Positions 1 through 31,334 of a stretch of DNA of 31,334 bases are shown here, piece by piece. Position numbers and translations under genes: made by a program. The stretch is from positions 1 to 31,334 of IMG/VR virus record IMGVR_UViG_3300029792_000005; one strand, 5' to 3'. The stretch comes from a virus. Taxonomy: Duplodnaviria > Caudoviricetes. The notes below the pieces were generated by a model that searched no databases, had not been told where the DNA came from, and saw only the letters and a list, made by a program, of their open reading frames with translations. How positions within the stretch are numbered: the first letter of the stretch is position 1; each line of letters opens with the position of its first letter.

Positions 1-186
1 AATACCAATTAGCCATTGACATACCTACCTTAACATATAAGAATTTATATGCATTGAGCCAGTCAGATCTTGTAAATAAAAATGGAAAATCTTTTTTTTG
101 AAATTGTAAAAATTGATCAATAGTTGAAAAATATTTATCCTTATAAAATTTGCTCCAGGATCTTATTTGTTTCCTTTCGACAATTT
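1..186. repeat. Imperfect terminal direct repeat, copy 1 (pairs with 31149-31334)
   Basis: Gap-free alignment at offset 31148. 142-186 is identical to 31290-31334 (45 bp); about 30 mismatches in 1-141. Confidence 0.95.
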
Positions 187-232
187 TATATTTCTGATCA
201 TAAGCTCTGGAAAACTTGCTATAATTAATCAT
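1..232 (-). CDS. 5' part of MuF/SPP1 gp7-like minor head protein gene (allele A, runs off the window start)
   Basis: ATG at 232 overlaps the portal stop. Translates MINYSKFSRAYDQKYKIVERKQIRSWSKFYKDKYFSTIDQFLQFQKKDFPFLFTRSDWLNAYKFLYVKVGMSMANWY, matching the reading frame upstream of ORF 29506..31170. Confidence 0.85.
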   Translation of the reverse strand, partial: MINYSKFSRAYDQKYKIVERKQIRSWSKFYKDKYFSTIDQFLQFQKKDFPFLFTRSDWLNAYKFLYVKVGMSMANWY

Positions 233-2513: not shown

Positions 2514-2529
2514 CAAAATTTAAAACTCA

Positions 2530-3708
2530 TTAAATTACAAAGAAATTATCCCCTTTTTTCCACCTCGAAAACACCATATATCTTAGAGCATCCATGCAAT
2601 GATTATGCTTATCTCGAGGAACATTTATGATCTGGCCATTCTTTGTTTTCTCCCACCAGTAATTGTAAAACTCTTTGATCATATTTTTGGATTGTTTAGA
2701 TACAATGATCTCATGATCCTTTAATAGCATTATTCCAGCCATTATAGATCCAGCTCCTTTAGTTGCTGGTTTAACCCAGAGCTCTGTGGATAGGAAATCA
2801 ATACTCTTTGGCTCAGCTGATTCTGCATAGATCAATTTCTGATCCAGATCATTTCTCTTTATGTAGTCAATGATCATTTGATTAGTGAACTTTGTTTTAT
2901 ACAAAATTTCATGGACATATAATTTATTACTTTGTTTTCCTACCTCTACAATTGCTGTTGGATCATTCGTATATCCAAAATCTAATCCCAAATAAGTTTC
3001 ATCCAGATCAGGGAACTCGTTATGATCAATGATCTTAAAATCTGTAAAGATCTGCCGATCAGTATAAGTTGCTCTCTGGCCTAGTCCATAGATCTGCCAA
3101 TAGTTAGGATTAGTTTTCTCTAACCTTTCGATCTCTGCCTTGATCAATGGATCCAGGAATGCATTATCCATGTAGGTTGATACAAATACATCTGCATCAT
3201 CTCTCGATTCCAGATCATCATAGATCCAGCTGTTCGGATCTGATGGATTATAATCGCAAATGAATTTATCTTTTGTTCTCATGTTTAGCTGAGTAAAATC
3301 CTCCTTTGTTAGCTCATTGATCTCATTGGCATAGCATATTGTTCTAAATGCTCCTCTTAGTTTCTGAGGATCATCCAGGCCTCTAAACTCCAGGAGATGA
3401 TTCTTATATCTAAAAGTATTTTCTGATTTGTTATGGATCCCATGATAATAGATCTCTGTGTCCTCCAGGATCTTGATCATATCTCTATATATGGATCCCT
3501 TTAATGTTGGCAATGTTTTTCTTATGATCGTTATTACTTGAGGATCCTTTGCTGTTAATAGAACATAAGCTATGTATTGGCAGATAGCTACTGACTTCCC
3601 AGATCTTGATCCTCCTCTATGGATTATGAATCTCTGATCAGAGTTTAGTGTTTCGTAAAATTGTTTGTTACATTCCTGGATTACTCTTTGCTCTTTGCTG
3701 GTTTCCAT
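2530..3708 (-). CDS. terL: Terminase large subunit (PBSX/Terminase_3-like)
   Basis: Walker A GGSRSGKS, NE Walker B region, YNP, nuclease GLDFGYTNDPTA and HNHCMDALRY. Confidence 0.95.
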   Translation of the reverse strand: METSKEQRVIQECNKQFYETLNSDQRFIIHRGGSRSGKSVAICQYIAYVLLTAKDPQVITIIRKTLPTLKGSIYRDMIKILEDTEIYYHGIHNKSENTFRYKNHLLEFRGLDDPQKLRGAFRTICYANEINELTKEDFTQLNMRTKDKFICDYNPSDPNSWIYDDLESRDDADVFVSTYMDNAFLDPLIKAEIERLEKTNPNYWQIYGLGQRATYTDRQIFTDFKIIDHNEFPDLDETYLGLDFGYTNDPTAIVEVGKQSNKLYVHEILYKTKFTNQMIIDYIKRNDLDQKLIYAESAEPKSIDFLSTELWVKPATKGAGSIMAGIMLLKDHEIIVSKQSKNMIKEFYNYWWEKTKNGQIINVPRDKHNHCMDALRYMVFSRWKKGDNFFVI

Positions 3709-4034
3709 TCAATCAATTTAGATTCGAGCTTAGCATCATGCTGGATCTCTTGCCTCTCTATATAGTTCCTTTTTTTGCCTTTGGTTTTAAGATAGAATAT
3801 TGTCGCTGTTGTATTGCCCTCTGAGATCTGTTGATGTAGTTTACTCTCAGCAAAGTCAAGAGCTATCTCTGAGATGTCCTCAACTGATTTCTTAAACTCC
3901 GGATCCTTAGCCATGTAATCATAAAATGTTGATCTGGCTACCTGAGCTGATTTGCAAGCTGTTGTTACAACTCCAAGAGATTTCTCGAGAGCCTCCAATA
4001 ACTTCTTTTTTAGTATGTCCGAATGTGTAGGCAT
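3681..4034 (-). CDS. terS: Terminase small subunit (HTH)
   Basis: HTH-like GVVTTACKSAQVARSTFYDY and ATIFYLKTKGKKR; overlaps terL start. Confidence 0.8.
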   Translation of the reverse strand: MPTHSDILKKKLLEALEKSLGVVTTACKSAQVARSTFYDYMAKDPEFKKSVEDISEIALDFAESKLHQQISEGNTTATIFYLKTKGKKRNYIERQEIQHDAKLESKLIEWKPAKSKE

Positions 4035-4038
4035 GTGG

Positions 4039-4046
4039 CAAATTTA
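4039..4046 (-). promoter_or_regulatory. -7 promoter element upstream of terS
   Basis: TAAATTTG ending 4 nt before the ATG. Confidence 0.5.
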
Positions 4047-4358
4047 ACGAATTAATTTTATTATTTCCGAGAGCCCAGAAATAGTTGGAATGTTTAACGA
4101 TTTATTATTAGCCAAACAATAATCAGCAATAAAAGATTTTGGGATCCATAGATCATCAGTAGTATCAAGATCAGGATCAGAATCAATAAAGTTTAAGATC
4201 CAATCCAGGATCTCTTGATATATTTCCTTATTGTTTTGATCTGGACAGCAATGGATCAATCTTGTAAGTTTATCAACAGCATGATCTAATAGATCATAAT
4301 CTAACATAACAAATTGTTCCTCATCACTTATTCCAAAGTCAGTTGATCTTATTATCAT
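4044..4358 (-). CDS. Hypothetical protein
   Basis: 104-aa ORF, coupled to upstream stop (TAATG). Confidence 0.7.
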   Translation of the reverse strand: MIIRSTDFGISDEEQFVMLDYDLLDHAVDKLTRLIHCCPDQNNKEIYQEILDWILNFIDSDPDLDTTDDLWIPKSFIADYCLANNKSLNIPTISGLSEIIKLIR

Positions 4359-4522
4359 TATTTAAACCATTTAATGTTAATTGTTAAAGCTACGATCAGG
4401 ATCTCAACATTATAATATTTATGATGCAATAGCTGATCATGATCCTGGATCCAGAACTTTAAACTTAATCCCAATCCCCAGATCAATCCTAAATTAATTT
4501 TATATCTGTTTAATATTTTCAT
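4358..4522 (-). CDS. Hypothetical small protein (MKILNRYK..., 54 aa)
   Basis: Internal ATG of track ORF 4358..4651 avoids a long overlap with 4500..4733. Confidence 0.55.
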   Translation of the reverse strand: MKILNRYKINLGLIWGLGLSLKFWIQDHDQLLHHKYYNVEILIVALTINIKWFK

Positions 4523-4733
4523 CTTTATATTTTTTATAGATGTGAACATATAGATCCCAAATTTTTTCAGATGCCTCTTTATCTGTTTTATAAAATTTAT
4601 GGCTTTTGATAATAGCTCCGGAATCATTGATGTAAAGTGTTTTATATCCACTTTGCAAAGCTACAATATAAATTTTTATGTTTCTTTTTAAACACCAGCT
4701 CATGGCTGTATATTGGATCGGTAGGATGCTCAT
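4500..4733 (-). CDS. Hypothetical protein
   Basis: 77-aa ORF, ATGA-coupled to upstream ORF. Confidence 0.7.
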   Translation of the reverse strand: MSILPIQYTAMSWCLKRNIKIYIVALQSGYKTLYINDSGAIIKSHKFYKTDKEASEKIWDLYVHIYKKYKDENIKQI

Positions 4734-4834
4734 AATAGATGAGTTTCAATTAAGATCCAAAGAAATGTTAAGATCAGGCCAATGTAAGATATTGCCAGGA
4801 TTCTCATTTTGTTTTCGTATTTGTTTTTATTCAT
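4730..4834 (-). CDS. Small membrane protein (34 aa, not in ORF track)
   Basis: MNKNKYENKMRILAISYIGLILTFLWILIETHLL; TAATG and ATGA coupling at both ends; one hydrophobic segment. Confidence 0.65.
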   Translation of the reverse strand: MNKNKYENKMRILAISYIGLILTFLWILIETHLL

Positions 4835-6516
4835 TAGAATGGTATTTGATTTTTGTTTAATATAGGTTTTGTTTGTTGATCTAATTCTTTATAAGATCCT
4901 CCAGCTTTAAAATCTGGAGCAAGATCAAAGGATCCTAATGATCCATTATCCTTTCTTTTTACTTTGTCAATATAAACTCTCACGAGATCAGATCCATATT
5001 TAGTTTTAGATCCGAGCTCTCTAACTACAACTATCCCATTAAAACATTTGTTAAAGAAACTGGCTGATCCAGAAATATCATATAGAGTTGCTTTTTTGTA
5101 AATGCCATTTTCTGATTCTAGTTTTCGAGGATGAGCAATTAAAAAAAGATGAGTATTTGTTTGCTGAACAAATTGAGTAAGTAAAGATAAGATCTTATCA
5201 TGATAGGAATGATCTGCATTAAAATTATGATTGAGCATGTTATAAGGATCAATTACAAAAAGATTTACTCCCTTTTGATATACCAGCTCCTTAAAGTGTT
5301 TTAAAACTTTTTCTAATGTTAGATCCTTTAAATCTATTTTGATCCAGGAGAAATGATCATTAATAAAATCTCTGGTATTATTTAGATCCTCAATCGAGCT
5401 GGATCTTTTGTTTAGCTTATCTGAGATCCTTTTGATATGAGATTCATAAGGATATGATTCTGGAGCAAACATTGCAGATCTAAATCCATGCTTAACTGCC
5501 ATATTACAAAGAATCTGATCACAAAAATCTGATTTTCCAGAATTTGGAACTCCAGTTATAACACTCCATTCTCCCATTGCTATTTTTAACAAACTATCAG
5601 CATTTTCAAATCCCATAGTAAAGTTTTTGATTCCAGAATTATTAAAGCTGATCACATCTTTCCAAATAGTATCAAGATCCAGAACTCCATCCAAAGGAAA
5701 ACTCTTTTTGTTATTTTCTAAGAGTTCTAACAGCTTTAAAATTCCTAATGACACAAGAGCCTCATTAGCATCTTTAAATCCATTTAGATCAATGTATTTG
5801 CATCTATATTTGCCTAATCTCCTGGCCAGTTCATTTCTTAATGCCAATCCAGGATCATCATGATCACAACATAAGATGATTTCTTTTTTATTATTAAAAT
5901 ACTTAATACAATTATCTAAATAATCTAATTTCTGAGATCCAGAGCTTGCTCCATTTGGAACAGAAATAACATTTTTGATTCCAGCTTCATGCAATGATAA
6001 TGCATCTATTTCTCCCTCTACAATATAACAGCTCTCTTGATCTTTGATCTGATCCAGGTTGTAAAAGATCAGCTCAGCATTTTTTTCAAGTGAAAAATTT
6101 TTCCTGGAATCTCTATATTTAATATTGATCAACTCATTATCTCTGTAATAATTAAAATTGATTGCTTTTGTTTTACGATCAAGAGCATGAAAATATTTCA
6201 TTGATTCTGTGATCTTAAAATCAATCAATGTTTGCATTGATATTGATCTACTTTTAAAATAATCTATAATCTTATCGGATAGTTTACCAGGATTTATTTT
6301 TGGTAAAACATATTCCACTTTCTTTTTAAACAATACTGATCCACTCCATTGGCAGTTATGACAATTATAATAACCTTGATCAATATTTACTGACAAGCAT
6401 GGATCTGATTTCTTTTTTCTTGTATGAGAGCATTTTGGACAAATAGTTTTGATTTGTCCTGATGATCTGTTCTTTAAGTTGATTCCTAAATTCTGGAGCT
6501 CGTTTATTATGTTCAT
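4834..6516 (-). CDS. Primase-helicase (T7 gp4/Twinkle-like)
   Basis: Zn finger CPKC..CHNC, TOPRIM VEGEIDALS/DHDDPG/KDANE, Walker A GVPNSGKS, VIDPYN, LIAHPRK, DISGSA. Confidence 0.93.
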   Translation of the reverse strand: MNIINELQNLGINLKNRSSGQIKTICPKCSHTRKKKSDPCLSVNIDQGYYNCHNCQWSGSVLFKKKVEYVLPKINPGKLSDKIIDYFKSRSISMQTLIDFKITESMKYFHALDRKTKAINFNYYRDNELINIKYRDSRKNFSLEKNAELIFYNLDQIKDQESCYIVEGEIDALSLHEAGIKNVISVPNGASSGSQKLDYLDNCIKYFNNKKEIILCCDHDDPGLALRNELARRLGKYRCKYIDLNGFKDANEALVSLGILKLLELLENNKKSFPLDGVLDLDTIWKDVISFNNSGIKNFTMGFENADSLLKIAMGEWSVITGVPNSGKSDFCDQILCNMAVKHGFRSAMFAPESYPYESHIKRISDKLNKRSSSIEDLNNTRDFINDHFSWIKIDLKDLTLEKVLKHFKELVYQKGVNLFVIDPYNMLNHNFNADHSYHDKILSLLTQFVQQTNTHLFLIAHPRKLESENGIYKKATLYDISGSASFFNKCFNGIVVVRELGSKTKYGSDLVRVYIDKVKRKDNGSLGSFDLAPDFKAGGSYKELDQQTKPILNKNQIPF

Positions 6517-7031
6517 ATTATGTTCAATTTGTATTTAAGTTGTTTAAGGCTAATGAATTGATCATTTTTAAAATGATAGCTATCTCCTTTTATGTTTTTT
6601 GGATCAAAGATCATTTGATTGGTTGCAAATCCTATAAACTTATAAGATCTAAATTGTTTTGAAAATGTTTTAAAGTATGCAAAGATCTGACAATTAGATC
6701 TGAGATCCTTTCTGATCCTTAATGGATATTTAGATCCAGATGCTTTTACATCTACTGAAAATCCATTCCATAGAGCATCAAAATCATCAGATCTATTTGA
6801 TTTTCTTTTGTTATGGATCGTAAAGTCAGGCATTAGATTCATTTCTTTGCAAAAAATATATTCAGCTCCGAATCCCATCTTATTTAATTCTAATCTTGAT
6901 CTATTTTTAGGAGCCAATGTTTTAAGGCCATCAAAGCCAGTTTTGATCTTGTTTTTTTGTCGTTGGTTTGCGACAAAACTGATCAGATCTATTTCATGAT
7001 CTGCAAGATGATAGGTTTTATTGATTATCAT
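6513..7031 (-). CDS. Hypothetical protein, possible restriction-endonuclease-fold nuclease
   Basis: GAE...D..D...VDVK pattern reminiscent of PD-(D/E)XK. Confidence 0.5.
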   Translation of the reverse strand: MIINKTYHLADHEIDLISFVANQRQKNKIKTGFDGLKTLAPKNRSRLELNKMGFGAEYIFCKEMNLMPDFTIHNKRKSNRSDDFDALWNGFSVDVKASGSKYPLRIRKDLRSNCQIFAYFKTFSKQFRSYKFIGFATNQMIFDPKNIKGDSYHFKNDQFISLKQLKYKLNII

Positions 7032-10650: not shown

Positions 10651-11223
10651 TTAATTTTCGTTTATAACTCCTAATTTAAAAACAAGATCAGGCTCATTAT
10701 TGTTTACAATATCATCAGTAATGATCTGCTCTAATTGCAATTCTAATTTCCTGAACTTTTTTCTATAAATAGTATTAAGCCTTTTATTTGCTGGATCTAT
10801 TGATCCAGGATCTGCAATCTCTTTCAATTCTTGATCAAAAAGAAAATGATTCATTTTCATGATCTGATTATATTCAGCTTTTAATCTTATAAGATCCCAT
10901 TCTGATTTAGGCTTTTTTACATTATCATCAGCATTTGAATAGATCCTTACAAATTCAGTTTCTGAAACTCTAATCCAGGATCCAGATAAACTCCAATTAT
11001 GTAATTTTCTAAAATCAATACTAAATGTATTTTCGTGGAAAAATAAAATCCAGGCATCAGTGTACTGAGTTTTTTTGCCTCTATTCAAAGTTAGTTCAAC
11101 CCTAACTCTAACTGGCCGATTTGCTACATCAGCATTTTTTAATTTATTAAGATCTGTAATTCTAGCTCTTAAAAAATTCTCGTTAAATTTTTCAATTTGT
11201 GTTTTTGTGTTTGTGTTTTTCAT
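10651..11223 (-). CDS. Hypothetical early protein (start revised to MKNTNTKTQ)
   Basis: ATG at 11223 has A-rich context; the track's extension to 11280 runs through the ribozyme. Confidence 0.7.
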   Translation of the reverse strand: MKNTNTKTQIEKFNENFLRARITDLNKLKNADVANRPVRVRVELTLNRGKKTQYTDAWILFFHENTFSIDFRKLHNWSLSGSWIRVSETEFVRIYSNADDNVKKPKSEWDLIRLKAEYNQIMKMNHFLFDQELKEIADPGSIDPANKRLNTIYRKKFRKLELQLEQIITDDIVNNNEPDLVFKLGVINEN

Positions 11224-11240
11224 TTTATTAATATTTGTTT

Positions 11241-11300
11241 GACAAAGAACATCCCCCAGCTGGAGGATGTTTTCGGCCATTGAGGCCTCATCAGTTTGCC
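11241..11300 (-). ncRNA. Type I hammerhead ribozyme
   Basis: GGCAAA-CUGAUGA-GGCC(UCAAU)GGCC-GAA-AACAUCCUCC(AGCU)GGGGGAUGUU-C-UUUGUC: complete core, stems I-III paired, UUC cleavage triplet. Confidence 0.93.
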
Positions 11301-11669
11301 TTAATCTAATAAGTGAGAATAATCAACATTATCTATTCTAACAACATTGTTAGTTACTCCTCCGAAAACTTTGTGAGATCCATTTTGAGTAACCCAAACT
11401 CTTTCTCCACCAGTACACACCTCTTTGCCAGAAAATATTTTTCTGTAAGTTCTAAAAGAGATAAAATTTGTAGCATTAGGATTTAAAGGAAAGCCTCCAA
11501 CTTGATCAACTACTCCCTCAACAAAGCAATTATCTGAATTTTCAAAATCGTAAGATCTAACAAAATCTCCAACTTTGAATTTTTCGTTTGATGTTCTTGC
11601 AACCTTTAATGTTGGATTAAGAGGATTGTTTAAAATGTTTTTGTTTGTGTTTGTGTTTTGTGTTTTCAT
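11301..11669 (-). CDS. Hypothetical early protein, possible SH3-like barrel
   Basis: FKVGDFVRSYDF...FVEGVV; first gene after the large intergenic region. Confidence 0.7.
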   Translation of the reverse strand: MKTQNTNTNKNILNNPLNPTLKVARTSNEKFKVGDFVRSYDFENSDNCFVEGVVDQVGGFPLNPNATNFISFRTYRKIFSGKEVCTGGERVWVTQNGSHKVFGGVTNNVVRIDNVDYSHLLD

Positions 11670-13128: not shown

Positions 13129-15654
13129 TTAATTATCGCCCTCCCCAGTATCTATGGCAATTCTTTCCAGGAGCTCTATATCTCCAAAAGTGTTGTCGGT
13201 ATTTTGCTTTTGATCGGATAATGATCCTTTGATTGTATATTCATTTTTTTTGGGGTTGAATGTCATTTTATTAATAGTAACAACATTTTCATCAACAACA
13301 TCATTAAACTGATTTGTTAACACACTACGATAAACACCCCAAGCAAACCAAAGCCGATCACTAAAAAATATTGGTTTTGTGCCAGCTTTCATTACTTTGA
13401 ATTTTCCCTCATAAGTTTTTAATCTTGCTCTATAATCATTAGCTAGATCTTGATTAATTAAATATGGCAATTCTTTAGCTTGAGGCAATCCTCCAGATGC
13501 ATCAATTTTGTCAAGAGCAACTCCAGTAACTGATTGAGGCCTTTGGAATTTTTTAAGGCTAAAATTGTCAATGGTTGCAATATCATCATTATTATGATTG
13601 CCAGTTCCTTTTGTTTTAATATTTATATTTTTTGATAATTTATTGATAGTTCCATCAGCATCAACTGATAAAATGCTTTCAAATGTTTTTGGAGAATCAA
13701 CTGCCTCCTCAAAAAATATCTCTAAATTATCCACATAAAAACCTTTATAAAAAGGCATGAATGTATTGTTTTGAGCAAAAAAATCAGCACTAGTTGAGAA
13801 TGATCCATTGGATCCAGTTGTTCCACCATTTAACAAAAATGGAGGCATAAGCTCAAAAGTTAGCAAAAACTCCTCATCAGCTCTTGAATCCCCTGAATCA
13901 AAAGGAGGAGCAATTTCAGCTGTAAATGTCATCCATCTATTATAATCAGTTTTTGTTATTCTAAAAATATCTGGTTCTGGATCTACTGCCAGGCTTGTAT
14001 CTGTCCATTGTCGATCTCTCTCCTCTTTTGCTAATTCAAAATTTTGTGATGGTAAAGAGGTTTGAGTTCTCCTCCACATTTTAATAGGAGTTGAGTTTAA
14101 TGTTTGGCCTTGATATTCATATAAATAACACTTGTATTGGCATCTCCAGGAATTAGTACCAGATGAAAAATCGGCTGGAATTTGCGACATTTCTACAAAA
14201 AGAGAAATGCTAATCTTAAGAGGTTTGTCATAATGTCCAGTTATTTTAAATCTATTTCCAAAAAATGAGGATCTAAAAATATAATTATGAAAATAGCTAT
14301 CAGATGTATATTGTTGATAATTCACAATTGTTGATGGCCTCATTAGATTTGTAAAAAAAGATAATTTTCCATTTTTTCTTACATTTCTCACAAACCCCTG
14401 AATTGGCTCTCTGTAAGGAGGATCAACTGGAAAAATTCCCAAAGGATTTGAATTGGCAGTTGTTCCATAAATATTAGTTCCATTCATCCCGGTACTTCCT
14501 CCCTTTTGCCTATATAACCAGCCTTGATTGAAAAACAATTGCTGAGTTGTATTTTGTGAAACTGGACTATTATATTCAAATCCGGAATTAGTGAACATTT
14601 GATGCTTTCTAAATGTTTTAATATCAACAGAATTGTTTATTTGGCCGATCTGAGGCTCAAAACTTTCTTTTAGATCTAAAGGAACAGCATCATCAGGAAC
14701 TAGTTTTAATCTGCTTTCAACTGAATTTGTGAAATAATTCCCAGTTGTTTGAGAGTATTTCCATGTTCTAACTTCATAATCCAAAGTATTTTCCAGTCGA
14801 TCTTTGATTTTAGTTCCTAGATCAGCCAGGCCAGATCCTGAATCAGTTGCAATTGCATTGTTAATGGCTTGCTCTAAAACATTATCATCTAATAATCCGG
14901 CATTTTGATCAATCCACCAATAACCCTGAGCTTGATATATTCTTGCTCCCAATGTTGTAAGAAAATTTTTAAGTTGTTTTTTTGCTGTGATTTTTCCTAA
15001 TTCATTAGTTAAATGATGAGGATTTGCATTTCTTATTTTTGTTAAGAGTTTATTATTATTTCTAACATCAGTTGCAGATGAGGCATTATATAAAGGCTCT
15101 GCCTCAAAATAAGTATTTGAATTATAGATCACTAGTGTTGAGGCTTGAGGTGTATCATTATTGCCATTAATATCTAATTTTTTAAGGATCCCAAATATCA
15201 TTCTATTTAACTGCATTGTTCCAGTTCGAGGAGGATCAAATTGATCCTCTTGATCTAATAAACCTAATCCATCAAATGCCCTGAATGTTAAAAGGTTTGG
15301 GAGCTGTTGAATTGTTCTTGTAAGCCGATCAGCCACAATAAAACCAAGCCAATAGTTTTTATATGCATTAGCTTGATTATCATAATATTTTAAAACAACT
15401 CTATGATTTTTATCCTCAGTAAAAATTAGATCATTAAATTGATCTGGAGTTTCCTCATAAATTTGAATAGTTGCTGATGATCCATAAATAGATCCATAAT
15501 TATTATCGTTTCCCTCATATCTAATAATGATTGGAGATCCTCCAAATTTTGGAGTTGTTACAGATCCAGTATAATTTTTCTCTTGTATTAATAACCTATA
15601 TTCATGTCCTTCAACATCTCCAAAGTCAAGTGTATATTTATTGCTGTAACTCAT
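13129..15654 (-). CDS. Large tail tip/baseplate protein
   Basis: 841 aa directly after tape measure; N-terminal KY.L.F.D..G..Y...I, WLGFI, AFDGLGLL. Confidence 0.7.
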   Translation of the reverse strand: MSYSNKYTLDFGDVEGHEYRLLIQEKNYTGSVTTPKFGGSPIIIRYEGNDNNYGSIYGSSATIQIYEETPDQFNDLIFTEDKNHRVVLKYYDNQANAYKNYWLGFIVADRLTRTIQQLPNLLTFRAFDGLGLLDQEDQFDPPRTGTMQLNRMIFGILKKLDINGNNDTPQASTLVIYNSNTYFEAEPLYNASSATDVRNNNKLLTKIRNANPHHLTNELGKITAKKQLKNFLTTLGARIYQAQGYWWIDQNAGLLDDNVLEQAINNAIATDSGSGLADLGTKIKDRLENTLDYEVRTWKYSQTTGNYFTNSVESRLKLVPDDAVPLDLKESFEPQIGQINNSVDIKTFRKHQMFTNSGFEYNSPVSQNTTQQLFFNQGWLYRQKGGSTGMNGTNIYGTTANSNPLGIFPVDPPYREPIQGFVRNVRKNGKLSFFTNLMRPSTIVNYQQYTSDSYFHNYIFRSSFFGNRFKITGHYDKPLKISISLFVEMSQIPADFSSGTNSWRCQYKCYLYEYQGQTLNSTPIKMWRRTQTSLPSQNFELAKEERDRQWTDTSLAVDPEPDIFRITKTDYNRWMTFTAEIAPPFDSGDSRADEEFLLTFELMPPFLLNGGTTGSNGSFSTSADFFAQNNTFMPFYKGFYVDNLEIFFEEAVDSPKTFESILSVDADGTINKLSKNINIKTKGTGNHNNDDIATIDNFSLKKFQRPQSVTGVALDKIDASGGLPQAKELPYLINQDLANDYRARLKTYEGKFKVMKAGTKPIFFSDRLWFAWGVYRSVLTNQFNDVVDENVVTINKMTFNPKKNEYTIKGSLSDQKQNTDNTFGDIELLERIAIDTGEGDN

Positions 15655-15657
15655 GTT

Positions 15658-18060
15658 TTATTCTGTAAATCTGCCTCTAGTTTCTTGAGCTCGATCTAAT
15701 GCTACAATTAAATCCTCTCCAGATAATGTAAAGGATCCTCCAACATTAACATTTGTTTCTGTTTGATTAGATCCCATCATTGAATTTAGTTTGCTTAATG
15801 GAGCAATAACTTCTGGATTTGATCTAGCTCCAGCATATTCTCCCATAAGGCCAAGAGTTGGACTATTAACAATTCCACCCTTAGCAAATTTTGGAACTTT
15901 TTTCATGGCTCCTGAAACTACTGCCATTGCTCCAGCAATTAATGCTGGCAATATAAATGCTCCAAATGGTGTTTTGCTTGCTGTTTCAGTTGCTGAGGTT
16001 ACTGCATTTGATGTTGACAAGGCAGTATTTACAGCCATGTTTTTCAAAGCTGTTTGCATAAGTGTTCCCAAAAATGCTTTCATTGGATTTTCTGAATTGG
16101 CCATGCTATCGGCAAAAGATTGAGCCTGGCCTGATAAATTTTCTTTTAGGTTTTCATCTAATCCAGCTAATAGATCAGCGAATTGTGATGCTTTTTCCTC
16201 TCCCTCTGATAGCTCGCTATCAACATCCTCATTTGGATCATCCTCTCCATCATCTCCAGATGGAGGCTCTTTTGTTGTGATCGGAGGCAGTTCAATAGTG
16301 TTTCCAGAAAAAACTCCTTTTATTTGATCTAATAGTCCAGTAGCCATATCAGCTCCCTTGCCTACAAATGCATCAACATCCTCCTCTGAAATCAATTCTA
16401 TTGGCTCTCTCTCTAATGCAGATCCCATTGCATCCTTGAAATTTTCAACAGCTGATGTTCCGGCAGTTTCAAAAACCCCATTTACATCATCCATCATGCC
16501 AGTAAAATTTTCAACAACAGCATTCCCAACTCTACTCATTCCTTGTTCAATTAGATCATAATCGAATGTCAATGCTCCTTTGATAATATTTCCTAAGCCT
16601 CCAAATATATCTCCTAATAAGCCAAATCCTCTTTGGAATGATGAAACTATTGCCTCAATAACTGCGACTGCTATATCATACATAGTTTTAAAAAATGCTC
16701 CTATTCCATGAATGATCATGGCAAAAGCTGTTGATTCATTATATAGATCAATAAAATAATTGGCAATATCTACAATAATCCCCTTAATGCCCTCCCATTC
16801 ATTATAAACAACATAAGCCACAGCACTAAGGCCAGCAACCAATAAACCAATAGGAGATAAAAGGCCACCAATGATTGAGAGCAATGTTCCTCCCAATGAT
16901 AATATAGTTGGCAGTACAAGAGTAACTCCAGTTAGAGCTCCGATCAAGAGCTGAGTTTCTCCATCCAAACTTGTAAAAGCAGTTACAGCTTTATTTATAA
17001 CATTAGAAACTGATGCTAATGCTGAGGCCACCATTGGCAAGATCACAGCTCCAATATCTTGCATTGATTGCTTCATGCCATTCATTGCTTGATCTAATTT
17101 AAAACTGGATGATTTTGATGTAGTTTCAAAGGCTTCATCCAATGCTCCATGAGAATCCTGGATCTGAGCCAATACCTCCTTATAAGCATCTCCCTGAGAT
17201 CCAGCTGTACCCAAAACAGCTGTTAATGCTCTAATGTTAGGAAATAAAGATGATAATGCATCAATATTCCCATCAGTTTTTTCCATCAACAGCTCAAGAG
17301 TTCCGGCTAATCCATCAGTTGCTAATTTATCTCTTAATCCCTCTGCCGATAACCCAAATTGAGCCATTGTTTCTTTTGCCTCTTGAGTTGGAGATGCTAA
17401 TCCAGCCATTATAGATCTTAATCCGGTAACAGCTGAGGCACTATCAACCCCTAATCTTGTAAATGTCGCAATAGATGCTCCGACTTCCTCAAATGATATT
17501 CCCATTGTTTGAGCCATACCAACAACCCTCCCCAAAGTTGGAGCTAATTCAGAGGCCTCCAGGTTACCAGTTTCAACAATTCTTTTAAATACATTCATTG
17601 AATGAGTTGCAGTCATGCCCTCTTTTGCAAAAGCATTCATAACACCAGTTGTAGCTCTGGCAATATCCTTAACATCTCCCATTCCAACAGCTGAGGCTTT
17701 AGATGCCATCTCTAATAGCTCCATTGCTGGAGCTCCCTTAACTCCGGCTGAGGTTACAGCAAATAATGCATCTGATAAATCATTGGCTGATCTACCAGTT
17801 TCCAATGATACTCTTTTAATTCTTGATTGATATAATTCAAAATTCTTAGCTGAATCTCCAACTAAGGTTTTGATTTTAGTCATGTTTTTATCAAAGGTAT
17901 TCGCTAAATAAGTTGATGCAGTTCCAACTCCAGCCAATGGCAAAGTTACAGATCTGAGGCTTGATGCAAAAGATTTTAGGCTAGCTCCAGCCTTTTTTAT
18001 GCCAGCATTAAATCCAGTTGTATTTGCTCCGACATTAACCTGGAGCTGTTTAGTAGCCAT
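15658..18060 (-). CDS. Tail tape measure protein (TP901-like)
   Basis: Ala/Gly-rich helical repeats, hydrophobic segments, C-terminal PKFAKGGIV..PT...GE...PEVIAPL. Confidence 0.93.
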   Translation of the reverse strand: MATKQLQVNVGANTTGFNAGIKKAGASLKSFASSLRSVTLPLAGVGTASTYLANTFDKNMTKIKTLVGDSAKNFELYQSRIKRVSLETGRSANDLSDALFAVTSAGVKGAPAMELLEMASKASAVGMGDVKDIARATTGVMNAFAKEGMTATHSMNVFKRIVETGNLEASELAPTLGRVVGMAQTMGISFEEVGASIATFTRLGVDSASAVTGLRSIMAGLASPTQEAKETMAQFGLSAEGLRDKLATDGLAGTLELLMEKTDGNIDALSSLFPNIRALTAVLGTAGSQGDAYKEVLAQIQDSHGALDEAFETTSKSSSFKLDQAMNGMKQSMQDIGAVILPMVASALASVSNVINKAVTAFTSLDGETQLLIGALTGVTLVLPTILSLGGTLLSIIGGLLSPIGLLVAGLSAVAYVVYNEWEGIKGIIVDIANYFIDLYNESTAFAMIIHGIGAFFKTMYDIAVAVIEAIVSSFQRGFGLLGDIFGGLGNIIKGALTFDYDLIEQGMSRVGNAVVENFTGMMDDVNGVFETAGTSAVENFKDAMGSALEREPIELISEEDVDAFVGKGADMATGLLDQIKGVFSGNTIELPPITTKEPPSGDDGEDDPNEDVDSELSEGEEKASQFADLLAGLDENLKENLSGQAQSFADSMANSENPMKAFLGTLMQTALKNMAVNTALSTSNAVTSATETASKTPFGAFILPALIAGAMAVVSGAMKKVPKFAKGGIVNSPTLGLMGEYAGARSNPEVIAPLSKLNSMMGSNQTETNVNVGGSFTLSGEDLIVALDRAQETRGRFTE

Positions 18061-18075
18061 AAGATGAATTTTTTA

Positions 18076-18083
18076 CAAATTTA
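18076..18083 (-). promoter_or_regulatory. -7 promoter element upstream of tape measure
   Basis: TAAATTTG. Confidence 0.55.
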
Positions 18084-18434
18084 CTATTTATTTTTTTTAG
18101 CCTCTTGCTCTCTTATGTAATCTAAAGGATTTTTAATTGGCTTATTAAAGTTCTTTACTTTGTTGACAAATGCCTCATATTCATCCTTAGTTGATTTCGG
18201 TTTTCCGATCTCCAATAAATTATCTTGAGGCAGTTTAAACATCTGATGAGGCTTGATCATGGCTCCCTTTTTGATCCCAGATGTATTATAAATTAATGTT
18301 GAATTGAATCTGACTAATTCCCATAAATGAAATTTAGTCAATAAATGATGTTCGGCCATGAGATCATTCTCTTTCCAAGTTGATCTCCAAAACAGATCTG
18401 GCATGATTCCACATTCTCCAATGTAAAAATCCAT
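18084..18434 (-). CDS. Tail assembly chaperone, gpT-like part (likely -1 frameshift fusion)
   Basis: Lies in the -1 frame of 18452..18832 and is open back to the A10 run; PDLFWRSTWKE. Confidence 0.75.
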   Translation of the reverse strand: MDFYIGECGIMPDLFWRSTWKENDLMAEHHLLTKFHLWELVRFNSTLIYNTSGIKKGAMIKPHQMFKLPQDNLLEIGKPKSTKDEYEAFVNKVKNFNKPIKNPLDYIREQEAKKNK

Positions 18435-18451
18435 CAGATCATCTATTGAAA

Positions 18452-18832
18452 CTATTTTTTTTTTGCCTTTGTTGTTTGCTTAACATTTCTTTTGATCCCA
18501 GCATTCATATCATTTCCCAAGAGCCTGGATTCCATCATTGCTGTCATGATCTTAGTTAGTTCATCTGGCTCAACATCATCAAGCCAGGATCCTAACTTAT
18601 ACTCATTAAAGCCTAATTCAAACCCCTCCTCTTGAGCATGAGCTAATAAAGCTGAATAAACCAAAGCTCTAACAGCTGAAATGTTTACAGATCCATCAAA
18701 GTATTTTCCGATCTCCTCGATTGAACAACCAAGCATGTCAGTAAAGTTTGCCCAGAAATTCATACTAAAGTGCATAGTATGATCCTGGCCATTGAGTTTT
18801 ATGGTATAGTAACCTCTCCTTTTATTCGGCAT
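18452..18832 (-). CDS. Tail assembly chaperone (gpG-like)
   Basis: Between tail tube and tape measure; ends GCA AAA AAA AAA TAG. Confidence 0.8.
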   Translation of the reverse strand: MPNKRRGYYTIKLNGQDHTMHFSMNFWANFTDMLGCSIEEIGKYFDGSVNISAVRALVYSALLAHAQEEGFELGFNEYKLGSWLDDVEPDELTKIMTAMMESRLLGNDMNAGIKRNVKQTTKAKKK

Positions 18833-18848
18833 GTATAAATCTTATTTG

Positions 18849-19259
18849 TTAAGAATTAGTTGATTTTATGATCTGTCCGGTTAAGGTTATAGATCCAGAA
18901 TAAGATACTGGACTTTCCATCTCAGCACTCATTTCAACTGAATCCAGGAAACCCTCAGCTGTATAAACAGCATCTCCAGTTACAGATGTTCCAAATACAC
19001 AAGTGATCTGAGTTCTTGCTAATACAAAATCAGCTAACTCGATAGCATTTTGAGTATCTGAATAATCAACCAATCCATCAAAGGAGATTGTTCCTGAGAT
19101 CACTCCAGCAATATGCTCAGCAAATCCATTTGAATCTTTTGTTGTTGCCTCTGGCAAGTCATTAGATAATGATAATGAGCATGATGTAGTGTGCCCCAAA
19201 GTTGTTCCCTCTATCTTTAACAATAGATTAGTTCCATTAAAAACATTTGTTGTTGGCAT
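18849..19259 (-). CDS. Major tail tube protein (TP901-1-like)
   Basis: NGTNLLL, HTTSCSLS, TTKDSNG, ISFDGL, YSGSITLTG. Confidence 0.88.
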   Translation of the reverse strand: MPTTNVFNGTNLLLKIEGTTLGHTTSCSLSLSNDLPEATTKDSNGFAEHIAGVISGTISFDGLVDYSDTQNAIELADFVLARTQITCVFGTSVTGDAVYTAEGFLDSVEMSAEMESPVSYSGSITLTGQIIKSTNS

Positions 19260-19286
19260 ATCCTAAATTTTATTTATTTAACTTTT

Positions 19287-19294
19287 CAAAGATA
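19287..19294 (-). promoter_or_regulatory. -7 promoter element upstream of tail tube gene
   Basis: TATCTTTG. Confidence 0.65.
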
Positions 19295-19306
19295 CAAAAT
19301 TTTAGA

Positions 19307-19777
19307 TTAAGCATTTTGCCATAATACATCAGCATTTTGCCATAATCCATAATCATTAAAGCTCCAAATATTTCCTTGATTTGGATTAGCAACTAAGAAC
19401 AATTGTTTGATCATAATTTCAGCATCAAATTCAGTTGCAGTTTCAATAGCTCCAGTTTCAGTTGCATCTGATACATTTCCATTTCCAATAAAAACTAATC
19501 CATTTGAGCTTTCAATGAAAAACTCAATGTCAGTTCTTTGCAAAACATAATCAGCCAATTCTGTATAATTTAAAGGATCTCCATATCTAGTTAATCCAGA
19601 AACCGAAAGCTGAGCATTTCTTAATCCAGCAATAACTTCCTGGAAACCATCAGAATCTTTGCTTGTTGATTCTGGCAGATCAGCTCCGATAGTTAAAGAA
19701 ATAGATTTTGAATGGCCAACTACTTGCCCATCTGATTGCCTTTTTAATAGAAAATTTGTTCCATTAACCTTTGCCAT
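19307..19777 (-). CDS. Second tail-tube-like paralog
   Basis: NGTNFLL, GHSKSISL, DLPESTSKDSDGF, ELADYVL align with 18849..19259. Confidence 0.8.
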   Translation of the reverse strand: MAKVNGTNFLLKRQSDGQVVGHSKSISLTIGADLPESTSKDSDGFQEVIAGLRNAQLSVSGLTRYGDPLNYTELADYVLQRTDIEFFIESSNGLVFIGNGNVSDATETGAIETATEFDAEIMIKQLFLVANPNQGNIWSFNDYGLWQNADVLWQNA

Positions 19778-19778
19778 T

Positions 19779-20840
19779 TTATTGAATTAATTGATCAATA
19801 TCAGCTTTAAATTCTGAATCTTTTACCATTTGATATTTGATTCTCATGTAAAATGCTCCTCCAGGAATTGGAGCTCCCTGATTTAAGTTCATTGCTGACT
19901 TCAACAAAATATCTCTATTTTGCAAAGTAACTATTAGATTATTTTTATCATAAAGGAGAGGCCTATTATAAAGATAATTATTTTGATTACCATTGATAAA
20001 ATGAACTTTATAAGGCATGGCAAAAAGTTGGACTGGATTACCTCCTGAATTTAGATTATAAGCAATTGACAACAATGGATCATCCACAGATCCAGCAAAT
20101 CCTCCCCTTTGATTATTGCCCTCTGTATCATAAAAAATAACAACCTGATCAATAATAATTGATCTATATTGTTCAGCTGGAAATAATACAACCGGATTAT
20201 TTTTAAGAGCATTGTTCTGGAATGCTGATCCTTTGATCTTTATATGTTTGTATCTCCAGCTCTCAACCAATTGGCCAGTTTTTCCAAATGCAGTTTCAAA
20301 TTTTGGTTTTTTGTTTTGGCCATCAACACACCATGCATTCCCAGCTCCATAATCAGCCATTCTCACATAATTCTGATTATCTGAAATAAACAATTTTTGA
20401 CTATCAACATTGATCCCTTTTGATTTTATAGATCCATTGACATCCAAAGCCGATTGAGGAGAGTTTGTTCTAATGCCTACTTTTGCTGATGCATGCTTAA
20501 AATTATTGGCCTCTGTATCAGAGTTAAAAGTTGATCCATCAACCATTGTTAATGTTGTTGGAATTTGTAAAGTGTCCAATGTTGATATTCCTGATGTCGC
20601 TTGCAATAATCCACTAACAACAACAGAGGAGGCTTGTATTTGGCCAGTATCAATTCCACCGGCATGAAATGTTGAGGCCTCTATTTCAGCTCCAGCTCCA
20701 GATTTACCAAGTTTCAGAGCTGTATCTTGCCCATCTCCATCCTGGATCCTTGTTCTCCCAGATCCGAGAGCTTGCTCATCATCAGTTTTTAATAATCCTG
20801 AATAAGTATCTTGAATTTTTTGATTTCCTAAAGTTGCCAT
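19779..20840 (-). CDS. Tail fibre/structural protein
   Basis: KIQDTYSGLLK N-terminus and KVGIRTNSPQSALDVNG motif typical of Bacteroidota phage fibres. Confidence 0.6.
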   Translation of the reverse strand: MATLGNQKIQDTYSGLLKTDDEQALGSGRTRIQDGDGQDTALKLGKSGAGAEIEASTFHAGGIDTGQIQASSVVVSGLLQATSGISTLDTLQIPTTLTMVDGSTFNSDTEANNFKHASAKVGIRTNSPQSALDVNGSIKSKGINVDSQKLFISDNQNYVRMADYGAGNAWCVDGQNKKPKFETAFGKTGQLVESWRYKHIKIKGSAFQNNALKNNPVVLFPAEQYRSIIIDQVVIFYDTEGNNQRGGFAGSVDDPLLSIAYNLNSGGNPVQLFAMPYKVHFINGNQNNYLYNRPLLYDKNNLIVTLQNRDILLKSAMNLNQGAPIPGGAFYMRIKYQMVKDSEFKADIDQLIQ

Positions 20841-26290: not shown

Positions 26291-26294
26291 AGAA

Positions 26295-27189: not shown

Positions 27190-28380
27190 TTATGGTTTTG
27201 TGATTGCAGTAATTGCAGAGCTGAATGATCCTTGAACGAATGCATTCGGATTATAGTTAGTTAAAGCCTCTCTCATTTTTGCTCTAATTGTAACAAATCC
27301 CTCTCTGATGTTTACGCCATCCTCTCTGTAAATTCCTAAGCTAATTCCCTCTCTAACCCATAATTGAGATCCAAGAGCAAAATTACCAACTAAGAAATTA
27401 CCAGCAGTTACTGCTGTATTAAGAACAACTGGCACTCCCATGAATGATGGTTGCAATCCAGCATAAACTTGATCCTTTAGATATTGATTTGTAGTATCTT
27501 TTAACACTAAAATCTTATGAAAATCTGATGGATTTAAAACAATATGATCAGCTTGATAGTTAGCTAATGCCAATTGATTCATTGATGCAACTAATACATC
27601 AAACTCATTTGGATTAGATACACTCTGATAAAATGCTCCACCAGCTCCAGTAACAAATGCAGTTCCATCTGTAAAAATACCAGATAAATTTGGAGCTGTT
27701 CCATTTCCATTTAAGATCTGATCATCCTCAACTGCCATAATTTTTGATGGCACTCTTGCAGATAGATAAGAAATTAATTGCTTATAATCATCTAACATTT
27801 CCTCAGAAACTCTTAGATAAGTTCCAATTTTTCTAACATTCGCATCTTTAGCTTCAAGCTCAAAATCTGTTTGGCCTAATGTAGCTCCCTCAGATTTTGC
27901 TGATACACCATCAGAATATGCAGTTTCCTTAACATATCTAACGACATCAGAATCTGTTGATCCGATTGGCAAGATCTCTCTAATGTGAGATGGCTTAGCC
28001 GGATCAAATTTAACTCCATCCACTCGAGTTGGAGCAATTACATCTCCGGTGAAATCGGAGCTGATTTTCATATCGGCCTTTAAAATAAATTCTGCCGATC
28101 TGCCACCTTTTTTCAAAGGCTCTAAAGCTCCATTTTCAATAGCTTTTTCCAAAGCTGATTTGAATGTTGTTGGAGCCTGGTTTGCTTCAAATGCTTTTTT
28201 CTGTGCAATCTCTGCATCATCCATTCTCTTATTAAGAGTTTCGATTTTTGCATCAACATTAGCGACAGCTTCAGCATTATCTGCCTTTATAGTTTCAACT
28301 ACTTCCATTGATTTGCTTTCAATTTTATTATCAATTTCTCCAGCCAAACTATCTAACGAATTTTTTAATTCTTCATTCAT
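27190..28380 (-). CDS. Major capsid protein (HK97 family)
   Basis: Coiled-coil delta domain, IREILP, VSEEMLDD, EDDQILNGNG, LNPSDF, GVPVV. Confidence 0.95.
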   Translation of the reverse strand: MNEELKNSLDSLAGEIDNKIESKSMEVVETIKADNAEAVANVDAKIETLNKRMDDAEIAQKKAFEANQAPTTFKSALEKAIENGALEPLKKGGRSAEFILKADMKISSDFTGDVIAPTRVDGVKFDPAKPSHIREILPIGSTDSDVVRYVKETAYSDGVSAKSEGATLGQTDFELEAKDANVRKIGTYLRVSEEMLDDYKQLISYLSARVPSKIMAVEDDQILNGNGTAPNLSGIFTDGTAFVTGAGGAFYQSVSNPNEFDVLVASMNQLALANYQADHIVLNPSDFHKILVLKDTTNQYLKDQVYAGLQPSFMGVPVVLNTAVTAGNFLVGNFALGSQLWVREGISLGIYREDGVNIREGFVTIRAKMREALTNYNPNAFVQGSFSSAITAITKP

Positions 28381-29111: not shown

Positions 29112-29124
29112 AATTATTTTTTTA

Positions 29125-29132: not shown

Positions 29133-29143
29133 ATCAAAATAAA

Positions 29144-29290
29144 TTATCTGGTTTTCCCTTGTGATTTGTATGGTTTTTTATATTGTTTTGATCCTTTAGA
29201 TCTGCTTAGGTTTTTGCTATGGATCCCCTTTCGTTTTTTCTTTGGAGGCCTTACATAAGCTGTGAAATTAATTCCTTTTTTCTTAGCCAT
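29144..29290 (-). CDS. Small highly basic protein (48 aa, not in ORF track)
   Basis: MAKKKGINFTAYVRPPKKKRKGIHSKNLSRSKGSKQYKKPYKSQGKTR; overlaps upstream stop. Confidence 0.75.
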   Translation of the reverse strand: MAKKKGINFTAYVRPPKKKRKGIHSKNLSRSKGSKQYKKPYKSQGKTR

Positions 29291-29522
29291 TTTTAATTGT
29301 TATTACTTGCCCATCAAAATGATCATCTTGATCCTTTGTAGTTATGTATTTATTTTTTTTATAAGCATCTAATATCATTAAATAAGCATCAGCCTGATCG
29401 ACATTAGCCAGCTTTTCAATTAAAAAAGGTTTTATGGCTTCAGGATATTTATTAAAATAATCATTCTCTATTTCAAAATACTCATCAACTTCTTTTTGTT
29501 CCGATTCAGATAATACTCTCAT
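29283..29522 (-). CDS. Small acidic protein, candidate MuF toxin immunity protein
   Basis: 79 aa, overlaps the MuF stop by 17 nt. Confidence 0.55.
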   Translation of the reverse strand: MRVLSESEQKEVDEYFEIENDYFNKYPEAIKPFLIEKLANVDQADAYLMILDAYKKNKYITTKDQDDHFDGQVITIKNG

Positions 29523-31334
29523 TTTTTATTTTTTTCATTAAATAATTTAAGGCATTTGCCAATTGTTTAGGCAATGATGCAAGCCATTCATCAACAACTG
29601 AAATTAGATCATCAAATAATTCTGGATTAAATTTCCTAAATACATAATTCCCAAAATATTTATATTGAAATGCCTCAGCAACAACTTCAGCCAATCCATT
29701 TCTATTCATGTAAGCAACATCATGGCCATATCCAGCAAGTCGTGGATAATATTTTGAGATCCCAAATAATCCATCCATAGTATCAATGGCATAGATCATC
29801 TGCTGATTTATTTCATACCTTACAGCAAAAGGATTGATATTTTTATTGCCATATTTTTTAAGTGTTTCTAAAGCATTTTTATAAACATCATCTCCATAAA
29901 TTTGGATTAATCTGTTTTGAACAAATAAACCTATTTCATCAGCTGATGCTCCAGCTTGCCTCATTCGTGATATTGTGCTTGCTAGTTTAGAATAACTCTC
30001 ATCAAACATTGATGTAAATTTTTTATATTGTTTTAATCCAGTTTGGCCGACATATCTCTGAGCAAATTTTTTCCAGATTTCATTTCCAAATCTATAAGGT
30101 TTATATGATCCCCAGTTTTTAATTCCTATCCCAAAATAATCATCAAGAGCATGGCCAAACTCATGCATAAATGTCCTAACCTGACTTGTTCTCCCAAAAG
30201 CTCTGGATAGTTGCATTTTTTTCTCAGATGGCCTATAAAACTCTTTAATGTTTTTTCTTGCCTTAGTTATAAATAGCCTTAGTTTATTTAAAGGCTGAGA
30301 TCTGTTTATAATAGAAATATAATCATCCAGATCAGCTCCAAATCCTTTTAATTCCTCAACATAATTTCTCATCTGATCAGAAAATTTTGCATAGAGATCT
30401 CCCTCATCAGATCTCCTTTGAGTTTCTCTTATTGATCTTAACAGATCATCAATTTCTTTGGGAGGTGTAATGGTTGCTCCTCCAGATGTTGGCAATATTC
30501 TTGCAACTCCAGTTGAAACCAGATCTCCAGCTCCTCCAGGTGTATTAGAAACTAATCCAAATCCGACATCAACAAGATCTCCACCAACAACTCTCTCATT
30601 ATAAGTTTTTGGAATATAAAAAGCCTTACAAGTACAATTACAAACATTGCCAGCTGATCCAGCTGGATCTCCAGGAAAACTCATTAGATCTGATTTTCCA
30701 TCTGGAGCTATAACCAGGAATTGTTCATGTTCAGGTATAGTTTCTCCATCCAGCTCCATGTGGCCATCTCTTGAGGTTGGCAAAAAAGATGATTGCCATG
30801 TTTTATTAAGAGATGATTTATCAAACATTGTAAAAGCTGATTCTCTCATTGCCATATTTGATGCTGTTGTTGTTTCAGTTCTTACGATCCTAGTTGCTTG
30901 AACTTTTGATAAATATGTCAGCTGTTTTCTTATGATCCTAGTTTGCTCAGGAACTCCCAGAGCCATAAATTTAGGATCTCTCATTAATTTAGAATAAAGA
31001 TTGTTCAATTGTTTTCTTTGATTTGCTGATAATCCAGTAATTCTCCTTGTTCCAATTTGAGCTGAAATATTTGCAAATGTTTCCTCCCAAGCTGTTTGAT
31101 AATTTTTAGTTTCAAGATCCTTAGTTGCAAATTTTTCAAAATTGTTAAAATACCAGTTTGCCATTGACATGCCTACCCTAACATATAAAAATTTATATGC
31201 CTTTAACCAATCCTCTTTTTTAAATAAAAATGGAAAATCTGTTCGGCCAGTAGTTAGAAATTGATCTATTGTGGAAAAATATTTATCCCTATAAAATTTG
31301 CTCCAGGATCTTATTTGTTTCCTTTCGACAATTT
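29506..31334 (-). CDS. MuF/SPP1 gp7-like minor head protein with C-terminal zincin metallopeptidase-like domain (allele B; true start is across the junction at 232)
   Basis: RIVRTETT, KTW, R.GH..LDG, FPGDP.G...NVCNCTC; then HEFGH and EVVAEAF; frame is open to the window end. Confidence 0.88.
   Translation of the reverse strand, partial: IVERKQIRSWSKFYRDKYFSTIDQFLTTGRTDFPFLFKKEDWLKAYKFLYVRVGMSMANWYFNNFEKFATKDLETKNYQTAWEETFANISAQIGTRRITGLSANQRKQLNNLYSKLMRDPKFMALGVPEQTRIIRKQLTYLSKVQATRIVRTETTTASNMAMRESAFTMFDKSSLNKTWQSSFLPTSRDGHMELDGETIPEHEQFLVIAPDGKSDLMSFPGDPAGSAGNVCNCTCKAFYIPKTYNERVVGGDLVDVGFGLVSNTPGGAGDLVSTGVARILPTSGGATITPPKEIDDLLRSIRETQRRSDEGDLYAKFSDQMRNYVEELKGFGADLDDYISIINRSQPLNKLRLFITKARKNIKEFYRPSEKKMQLSRAFGRTSQVRTFMHEFGHALDDYFGIGIKNWGSYKPYRFGNEIWKKFAQRYVGQTGLKQYKKFTSMFDESYSKLASTISRMRQAGASADEIGLFVQNRLIQIYGDDVYKNALETLKKYGNKNINPFAVRYEINQQMIYAIDTMDGLFGISKYYPRLAGYGHDVAYMNRNGLAEVVAEAFQYKYFGNYVFRKFNPELFDDLISVVDEWLASLPKQLANALNYLMKKIKNESII
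31149..31334. repeat. Imperfect terminal direct repeat, copy 2
   Basis: Aligns to 1-186. Confidence 0.95.

Follow-up and report, generated by a model that had tools for sequence, protein, structure and literature searches.

Mycobacteriophages of subcluster B3 carry a genome-wide, lineage-specific excess of GATC and GGATCC of about 4-fold, the cause of which is unexplained (PMC4841201). A similar signature is seen in the tailed-phage genome analyzed here, IMG/VR virus record IMGVR_UViG_3300029792_000005 (positions 1 to 31,334, the whole stretch, hereafter the window), although it differs from B3 in that GATC reaches 5.1-fold at 32% GC, that codon-preserving null models were applied, and that the host phylum is a different one. 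Moreover, the partner of GATC in the window is CCWGG, the excess is not focused on GGATCC, and other sites have been purged almost totally. This purge resembles restriction-site avoidance, a well-known phenomenon (PMC6286503, PMC4687349), and in virulent phages many palindromic and asymmetric words are completely lost (PMC6286503), but avoidance predicts loss only and leaves the gain of two words unaccounted for. GATC itself is under-represented in all 46 of the phages that infect hosts with a methyl-directed (type IIM) enzyme for GATC (PMC6286503). Dispersed palindromes that occur far above chance at methyltransferase target words are also known from cyanobacteria as HIP1 and alternate HIPs, for which a ratchet model has been put forward; these are 6-8-mers present about once per kb in chromosomes that encode the methylase (PMC4390886), whereas the enriched words of the window are 4 and 5 nucleotides long, reach 15 and 2.3 per kb, respectively, and belong to a phage without a methylase. 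In addition, DISARM and Dnd use self marks at CCWGG or GATC, the same words as in the window (PMC9142583, 10.1101/2021.12.28.474362, PMC6435447). These are host systems, however, and none was located for this phage. In the accessible parts of the literature we found nothing on phages that gain sites in order to exploit DISARM or Dnd, and mostly open-access main texts yielded no phage in which GATC and CCWGG rise together while other words are purged; further context is given in PMC8919816 and PMC9296519.

The signature is real, strong and clade-wide, and it carries a sharp, testable prediction; its cause is unproven. The first of its two enriched words is distributed as follows.

1-31334, no strand: 484 dispersed GATC sites, in reading frames 186/112/156, plus non-coding DNA.

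These sites amount to 15.4/kb in 31,334 bp, against the 3.0/kb expected at 32.5% GC (5.13-fold). The manual counts of GATC in a preliminary description of this DNA are exact (18 in 1-1020, 34 in 2521-3660, 10 in 4141-4300, and 28 and 10 in the 2.5-kb tail gene and the capsid gene, respectively), as are those of 9 GTAC and 0 ACGT. Using GTAC as the yardstick nevertheless makes the effect look too large, since this word and the AC/GT step are themselves depleted. Relative to expectation, the AC/GT step stands at 0.54 and CG at 0.27 over the whole window, and AC is near 0.5 throughout the clade and 0.7-1.0 in wider relatives. GATC is the top 4-mer by maximal-order Markov comparison (ratio 1.68, z 22.5). 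In the 44 open reading frames (ORFs) we count 454 GATC, whereas shuffling synonymous codons gives 244.5 (z 21.9) and shuffling codon order gives 153.7 (z 27.1), and non-coding DNA, with 32 GATC in 2,221 bases, has a density equal to that of coding DNA. Because the purging of some words inflates others, we also built a strict null in which proteins, exact codon usage and dinucleotide counts are fixed and 316 depleted 4-6-mers are penalized; it covers contiguous 4-6-mers, not long bipartite sites. Under this null the ORFs are expected to hold 289-310 GATC. The excess therefore does not vanish under codon- and word-preserving nulls, as the preliminary description had allowed that it might; it is confirmed as real and is independent of protein sequence, codon usage and short-word avoidance. 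Nor is it an assembly artefact, since two independent marine runs from other studies match the window, with 0-1 differences per contig over 1-10,000 among the matches listed.

CCWGG is the only other word to remain high under the strict null (65 observed in ORFs versus 20-31), and it stands on a background of near-absent words.

155-31307, no strand: 72 CCWGG sites scattered along the genome (dinucleotide shuffles predict 24), the second enriched word.
1-31334: 19 words with 0 copies (ACGT, GCGC, CGCG, CCGC, AGAC, GACC, GACG, GCNGC, GGNCC, CCNNGG, ACNGT, ACAGG, CCTGC, CGATG, GATATC, AAGCTT, CATATG, CCATGG, ATCGAT).
1-31334: 7 words with 1 copy (ACGG, GAAGA, GGTGA, CCTTC, GAGTC, GAACC, CACTG).

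GATC and CCWGG are the target words of Dam and Dcm, respectively. Fitting these two words gave weights of at least e^2.0 for GATC and at least e^2.2 for CCWGG, in a fit that had not fully converged, and left no other 4-mer above z 2.3; CTGGA and CTCCAG are among the small excesses that persisted. AGCT, GGCC, GAGC and CCTC were considered as additional enriched words and rejected, as the strict null brings them to approximately their observed values and they are thus by-products. The purged words, which we take to match the sites of named restriction enzymes, include short palindromic and asymmetric sequences lying far below codon-aware expectation, for example AGAC (0 versus 110 in synonymous shuffles) and GAAGA (1 versus 70), as restriction-site avoidance entails. 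Three of them, the asymmetric 4-base words AGAC, GACC and GACG, are wholly absent and are shorter than most known asymmetric restriction sites.

The force on GATC is visible in codon choice, for which three context ratios were worked out by hand. Isoleucine is encoded by ATC in 156 of 214 cases after G versus 86 of 534 after other bases (odds ratio 14); leucine after GAT uses CTN 70 times and TTR 10 times, compared to 34 and 46 after AAT, CAT or TAT (ratio 9.5); and Lys, Glu and Gln codons ending in G stand at 59 to 18 before ATC and 33 to 117 before ATT, ATA or ATG (ratio 11.6). The site-forming codon is therefore favoured about 10-14-fold at every position tested. The Ile ATA:ATT ratio is unchanged after G relative to other contexts (0.61 versus 0.63), both codons falling together, as a fitness-type weight on GATC predicts. 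Even amino-acid pairs are shifted, with GATC-capable dipeptides enriched 1.4-2.0-fold (DP 2.04, RS 2.02, DQ 1.76); the exception, DR (0.73), is not enriched because CGN codons are rare. The idea that amino acids at GATC codons are more conserved was rejected (0.72 versus 0.77). Asp is encoded by GAT in 627 of 655 cases.

Along the genome, GATC spacing is random (mean 65, coefficient of variation 1.08, longest gap 462), and even spacing or periodicity was rejected, none being seen. Density nevertheless differs between modules.

2530-7031, minus strand: GATC-richest block (terminase large subunit 28.8/kb; ORF 4044-4358 34.9/kb; primase/helicase 22.6/kb; ORF 6513-7031 30.8/kb).
13129-20840, minus strand: tail module, mostly of lower GATC density (tail protein 11.1/kb; tape measure 8.3/kb; tube genes 9.7 and 6.4/kb; fibre-like 11.3/kb).
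27190-28380, minus strand: HK97-type major capsid gene, GATC 8.4/kb, the marker used for collecting relatives.

Several virion genes (capsid, tape measure and tail tubes) are thus poorer in GATC than the terminase and replication genes (17-31/kb), which we read as counter-selection in highly expressed genes. The flanks of GATC are near background except for CG avoidance, and 15 of the 16 flank pairs occur, unlike the fixed-flank 6-8-bp palindromes of the HIP1 type. Both enriched words are palindromic 4-5-mers, whereas Chi and uptake-type sequences are non-palindromic, strand-polarized and 5-10 bp long.

The same two words are enriched throughout the clade. In 12 loci of at least 5 kb (terminase 87-99% and capsid 83-99% identical), GATC reaches 3.3-7.3-fold and CCWGG 3.2-9.4-fold, and seven metagenome loci give 2.9-4.7-fold and 5.3-7.6-fold, respectively. 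For the wider family we used 63 loci of at least 5 kb with capsids 54-61% identical, taken from the best 80 of 467 viral matches plus 4 genome-bin contigs, shorter loci being dropped; 60 of these have GATC at 0-1.8-fold, nine of them with zero GATC, and the exceptions (L033, L088 and L089) have 2.3-2.8-fold. Under the strict null, GATC and CCWGG are the top two words in the sister genome G003 (355 versus 229 and 125 versus 47) and in L098 (216 versus 160 and 51 versus 24). They also come first, but less cleanly, in the distant genome G004, which is the L033 record (172 versus 131 and 37 versus 19) and has an avoided-word set quite different from that of the window. When the window and G003 are aligned (77% nucleotide identity), 180 of 334 window GATC sites are shared while G003 has 291, showing that sites turn over at constant density. 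Strains 92-95% alike exist, and close strains have fewer GATC than the window (261 versus 283, 64 versus 97, 53 versus 72). Within the clade the avoidance of CTAG, CCNNGG, ACAGG, GGTGA and GAAGA also varies, and these strain differences in GATC number and avoided words imply that both forces depend on the host and keep shifting.

CTAG is almost purged in the 94%-identical loci L001-L003, L008-L011 and L016 (1 versus 12 in the window, over 16.8 kb), a difference that is a restriction target recently gained or lost; the window lineage has an excess of T>C (136 versus 42 C>T). Among L019-L093, each lineage has its own set of avoided 4-mers (for example CATG, GGCC, AGCT, CCGG or GATC at zero), possibly a host fingerprint.

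The preliminary description's observation that the genome has no recognizable methyltransferase is upheld by profile searches and by a structural model. Six-frame searches of the window with PF02086, PF01555 and PF00145 (D12, N6/N4 and C5) gave 0 matches, no methyltransferase was found among 44 ORFs (PHROGs/Pfam) or among 27-28 ORFs (NCBIfam/PADLOC), and six-frame searches of G003 and G004 found no D12 or C5 enzyme. A very divergent methyltransferase may be present among the unfolded orphans. The orphan genes of the window include the following pair.

10651-11669, minus strand: two genes (209 and 122 aa) that belong to no family; 85% identity in G003, not found in G004.

The 209-aa protein is the largest clade-restricted orphan (7 homologues). 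Its predicted structure, a low-confidence model (pLDDT score 62.5), suggests a beta-meander with two long helices and not the Rossmann fold of methyltransferases, and it had no match in Atlas, PDB sequences or Foldseek. The 122-aa protein matched only unnamed viral clusters, all under 0.9. This pair is 85% identical to G003 while neighbouring genes are at 55-70%; the two proteins are candidates for early host-interaction functions.

The phage is of marine origin and its whole 31.3-kb genome forms one contig (CheckV 100%), with every gene on the minus strand. The gene set comprises portal, PBSX-type terminase, primase/helicase, replication initiator, VRR-NUC, exonuclease VIII, tail, holin, amidase, HK97 capsid, protease and head-morphogenesis proteins; no tRNA genes were found in the window. 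There are no close cultured relatives (terminase and capsid each at most 35%, tail tube no match). Two further features are listed next.

1-232, minus strand: start of the head-morphogenesis (MuF) gene, with a second, different allele at ~31150-31334 (contig ends).
25864-26283, minus strand: PD-(D/E)XK homing-endonuclease-like gene, present in G003 and G004 too.

Because the contig ends are non-identical alleles of the MuF 5' end, the contig spans one whole genome, and a contig of run X3 that departs from the window at position 87 into unlike sequence shows that the MuF gene is polymorphic in the population. The MuF protein (29283-31170, minus strand) is extended far at its C terminus, where an HExxH motif (HEFGH) occurs, and is only 45% identical to its G003 counterpart, and the next ORF after it (79 aa) is 37% identical to that of G003; the extension and the 79-aa ORF resemble a polymorphic MuF toxin-immunity cassette. 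The segment 26284-27189, downstream of the capsid gene, is mostly non-coding.

The host is probably a member of the Bacteroidota, given that start codons lack Shine-Dalgarno motifs and that the best cultured primase matches (32-36%) are mostly to phages of Cellulophaga, Tenacibaculum and Flavobacterium, of the Flavobacteriaceae. An approach through prophages was abandoned, as the 4 matches were all 55-60% relatives on phage-sized genome-bin contigs and allowed no host call. Methylation of GATC and of CCWGG occurs in some strains of the Bacteroidales (PMC10333322), and that of CCWGG in a Polaribacter genome (PMC12570018). We also sampled chromosomes spread evenly over the likely host phylum, both to look for a host by GATC clustering and to see whether the excess mirrors host chromosomes, as the preliminary description had allowed; this sample says little on low-GC marine lineages and is not the host. 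Among 301 genomes of the phylum of G002, triple-GATC clusters reach at most 83/Mb versus about 220/Mb in the window (7 in 31 kb, counted slightly differently). Five GATC-rich chromosomes have 44-62% GC in the 20 kb read; Dam, C5 methylase and Vsr were each searched for in five chromosomes and not found. In the phylum sample, 28 of 201 genomes have Dam-family genes and 6 of 201 have dndD; the dam-positive genomes are not GATC-rich by hand count, 15 of 28 having 7 or fewer triple clusters versus 69 of 200 overall.

We tentatively favour, at somewhat less than an even chance, weak and additive selection for host-markable self sites at GATC and CCWGG. A host enzyme would modify both words, by methylation or phosphorothioation, so that phage DNA in the virion carries the marks; a DISARM- or Dnd-like effector would sense missing marks rather than a target sequence; and every added marked site would slightly lower the chance of attack on incoming DNA, giving a small additive benefit per site with a fitted weight of about e^2 to e^2.5. 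The Bacteroidota host, the host-made marks in the virion, the mark-sensing effector and the small benefit per site are each steps that we infer. Precedents exist for the parts: the DrmAB effector is restrained by marks (PMC9142583), class 2 DISARM has self marks at CCWGG (10.1101/2021.12.28.474362), and DndFGH of Hahella has self marks at GATC that Dam methylation can replace (PMC6435447). The preliminary description's claim of a directional force on the DNA sequence is thus supported by the codon-preserving and strict nulls, while the host enzyme that it supposed to mark the sites stays conditional and its picture was incomplete, as the CCWGG gain and the word purge were missed.

Several observations weigh against selection for self sites. 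Extra unmethylated sites raise restriction by class 1 DISARM, and DISARM phage protection did not scale with site number (10.1101/2021.12.28.474362); a single system reading both GATC and CCWGG was not found in the accessible parts of the literature; and the random spacing of GATC gives no sign of a protective radius. One close strain lineage, moreover, is seemingly losing GATC (GATC>GATT 12/243 versus 43/1,935 other C>T; small numbers, distant outgroup). In addition, the G065 chromosome, which has no detectable Dam, C5 methylase or Vsr, shows a milder excess of both words: in 20 kb (L106, C1:1-20000, 44% GC), WGATC and CCWGG are at 1.8- and 1.4-fold over dinucleotide shuffles, compared to ~2.8-3.0-fold in the window. 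Some chromosomes therefore carry a milder version, which the phage could share with its true host. Genome-wide, G065 has 2,237 AGATCT versus 116 TCTAGA. Finally, in two genomes the weight per site is near e^2 for either word, and a repair bias that does not depend on population size explains this equally naturally. Such a bias would arise from a neutral, mark-directed ratchet like that proposed for cyanobacterial HIP1 (PMC4390886), in which GATC and CCWGG methylation biases mismatch or heteroduplex repair to the marked strand and near-sites become sites with no fitness benefit. We consider this the main rival reading, possible but somewhat unlikely. Acting on any mismatch, a ratchet would reach the same equilibrium as selection, with a bias of about 8-12-fold independent of population size (fitted weights 2.0-2.5) and random GATC spacing, and the phage encodes an exonuclease VIII-like protein and strains 92-95% alike exist. 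Its classical Vsr form (T:G to C:G only), however, predicts loss of ATT but not of ATA after G, and both fall, also in G003 (9/24 versus 156/210). Simple Vsr-type repair is accordingly rejected for GATC, where ATA:ATT is unchanged and GATT is not selectively lost (GATT 0.87, GATA 0.82), although low CTAGG (0.39) and CTTGG (0.53) make a Vsr contribution at CCWGG possible. Other points against a ratchet are that MutH is confined to gamma-proteobacteria (PMC4390886), that 6 of 14 lineage-specific methylated motifs in Bacteroides are depleted and none enriched (PMC10333322), and that the dam-positive chromosomes noted above are not GATC-rich. Polarized substitutions are too few to separate selection from repair.

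It is quite improbable that GATC and CCWGG merely remain as a passive refuge because so many other words are forbidden. Avoidance does lift the GATC null from ~245 to ~295 and explains AGCT, GGCC, GAGC and CCTC almost wholly, and long bipartite sites lie outside the contiguous 4-6-mers of that null. About 160 GATC and 40 CCWGG are left unexplained, though, even when the already skewed codon usage and the protein sequence are kept; the same two words lead in G004 despite its different avoided set; and other word-purging relatives have no excess. Dam- and Dcm-sensitive restriction enzymes are blocked by overlapping methylation, and host marks might thereby shield restriction sites that overlap GATC or CCWGG and favour such contexts, but spot checks make this very improbable: GATCGAT is absent although 11 TCGA overlap GATC, GAAGATC occurs 0 times versus 86 HAAGATC (confounded by general GAAG avoidance), GGNCC is absent in its Dcm-overlap forms too, and the two CTAG left in the CTAG-purged L003 are not within CTAGATC. 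Least probable of all, and in our view highly improbable, is that the sites bind, or act as decoys for, a SeqA- or MutH-like host factor that recognizes GATC, in packaging or replication control. Genome-wide dispersal of GATC would suit such a factor, and P1 packaging needs Dam marks (PMC12707154), but there is no cluster, period or origin-like array, and the missing Shine-Dalgarno motifs and the Flavobacteriaceae-phage primase matches speak against a host among the gamma-proteobacteria. The titration of a GATC-binding factor that the preliminary description had suggested also leaves CCWGG unexplained.

A bolder form of selection for self sites, which we regard as unlikely, is that marine Bacteroidota immunity counts self marks at GATC and CCWGG and that two phage lineages independently evolved epigenetic camouflage by site gain; in place of a methylase gene, they would have changed their codons, and even amino acids, so as to acquire host marks. 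If true, word excess in phages would predict the marks read by unknown defence systems; a phosphorothioate CCAG motif was not found in the accessible part of the PT-seq preprint (10.1101/2024.06.03.597111). Phage genomes are usually read as a record of site loss through host cutting, whereas the same genome here also records gain, which is limited to the two classic words of orphan methylases and is so strong that amino-acid pairs are shifted. Should selection be the cause, site gain would be an overlooked counter-defence that names the marks of an uncultured host's immunity; should a repair ratchet be the cause, a 31-kb genome with polymorphic strains would be a compact system in which to test the HIP1 mechanism. 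Under either reading, long-read modification calling on marine viromes has a sharp prediction to check, and methylation offers a route to the host.
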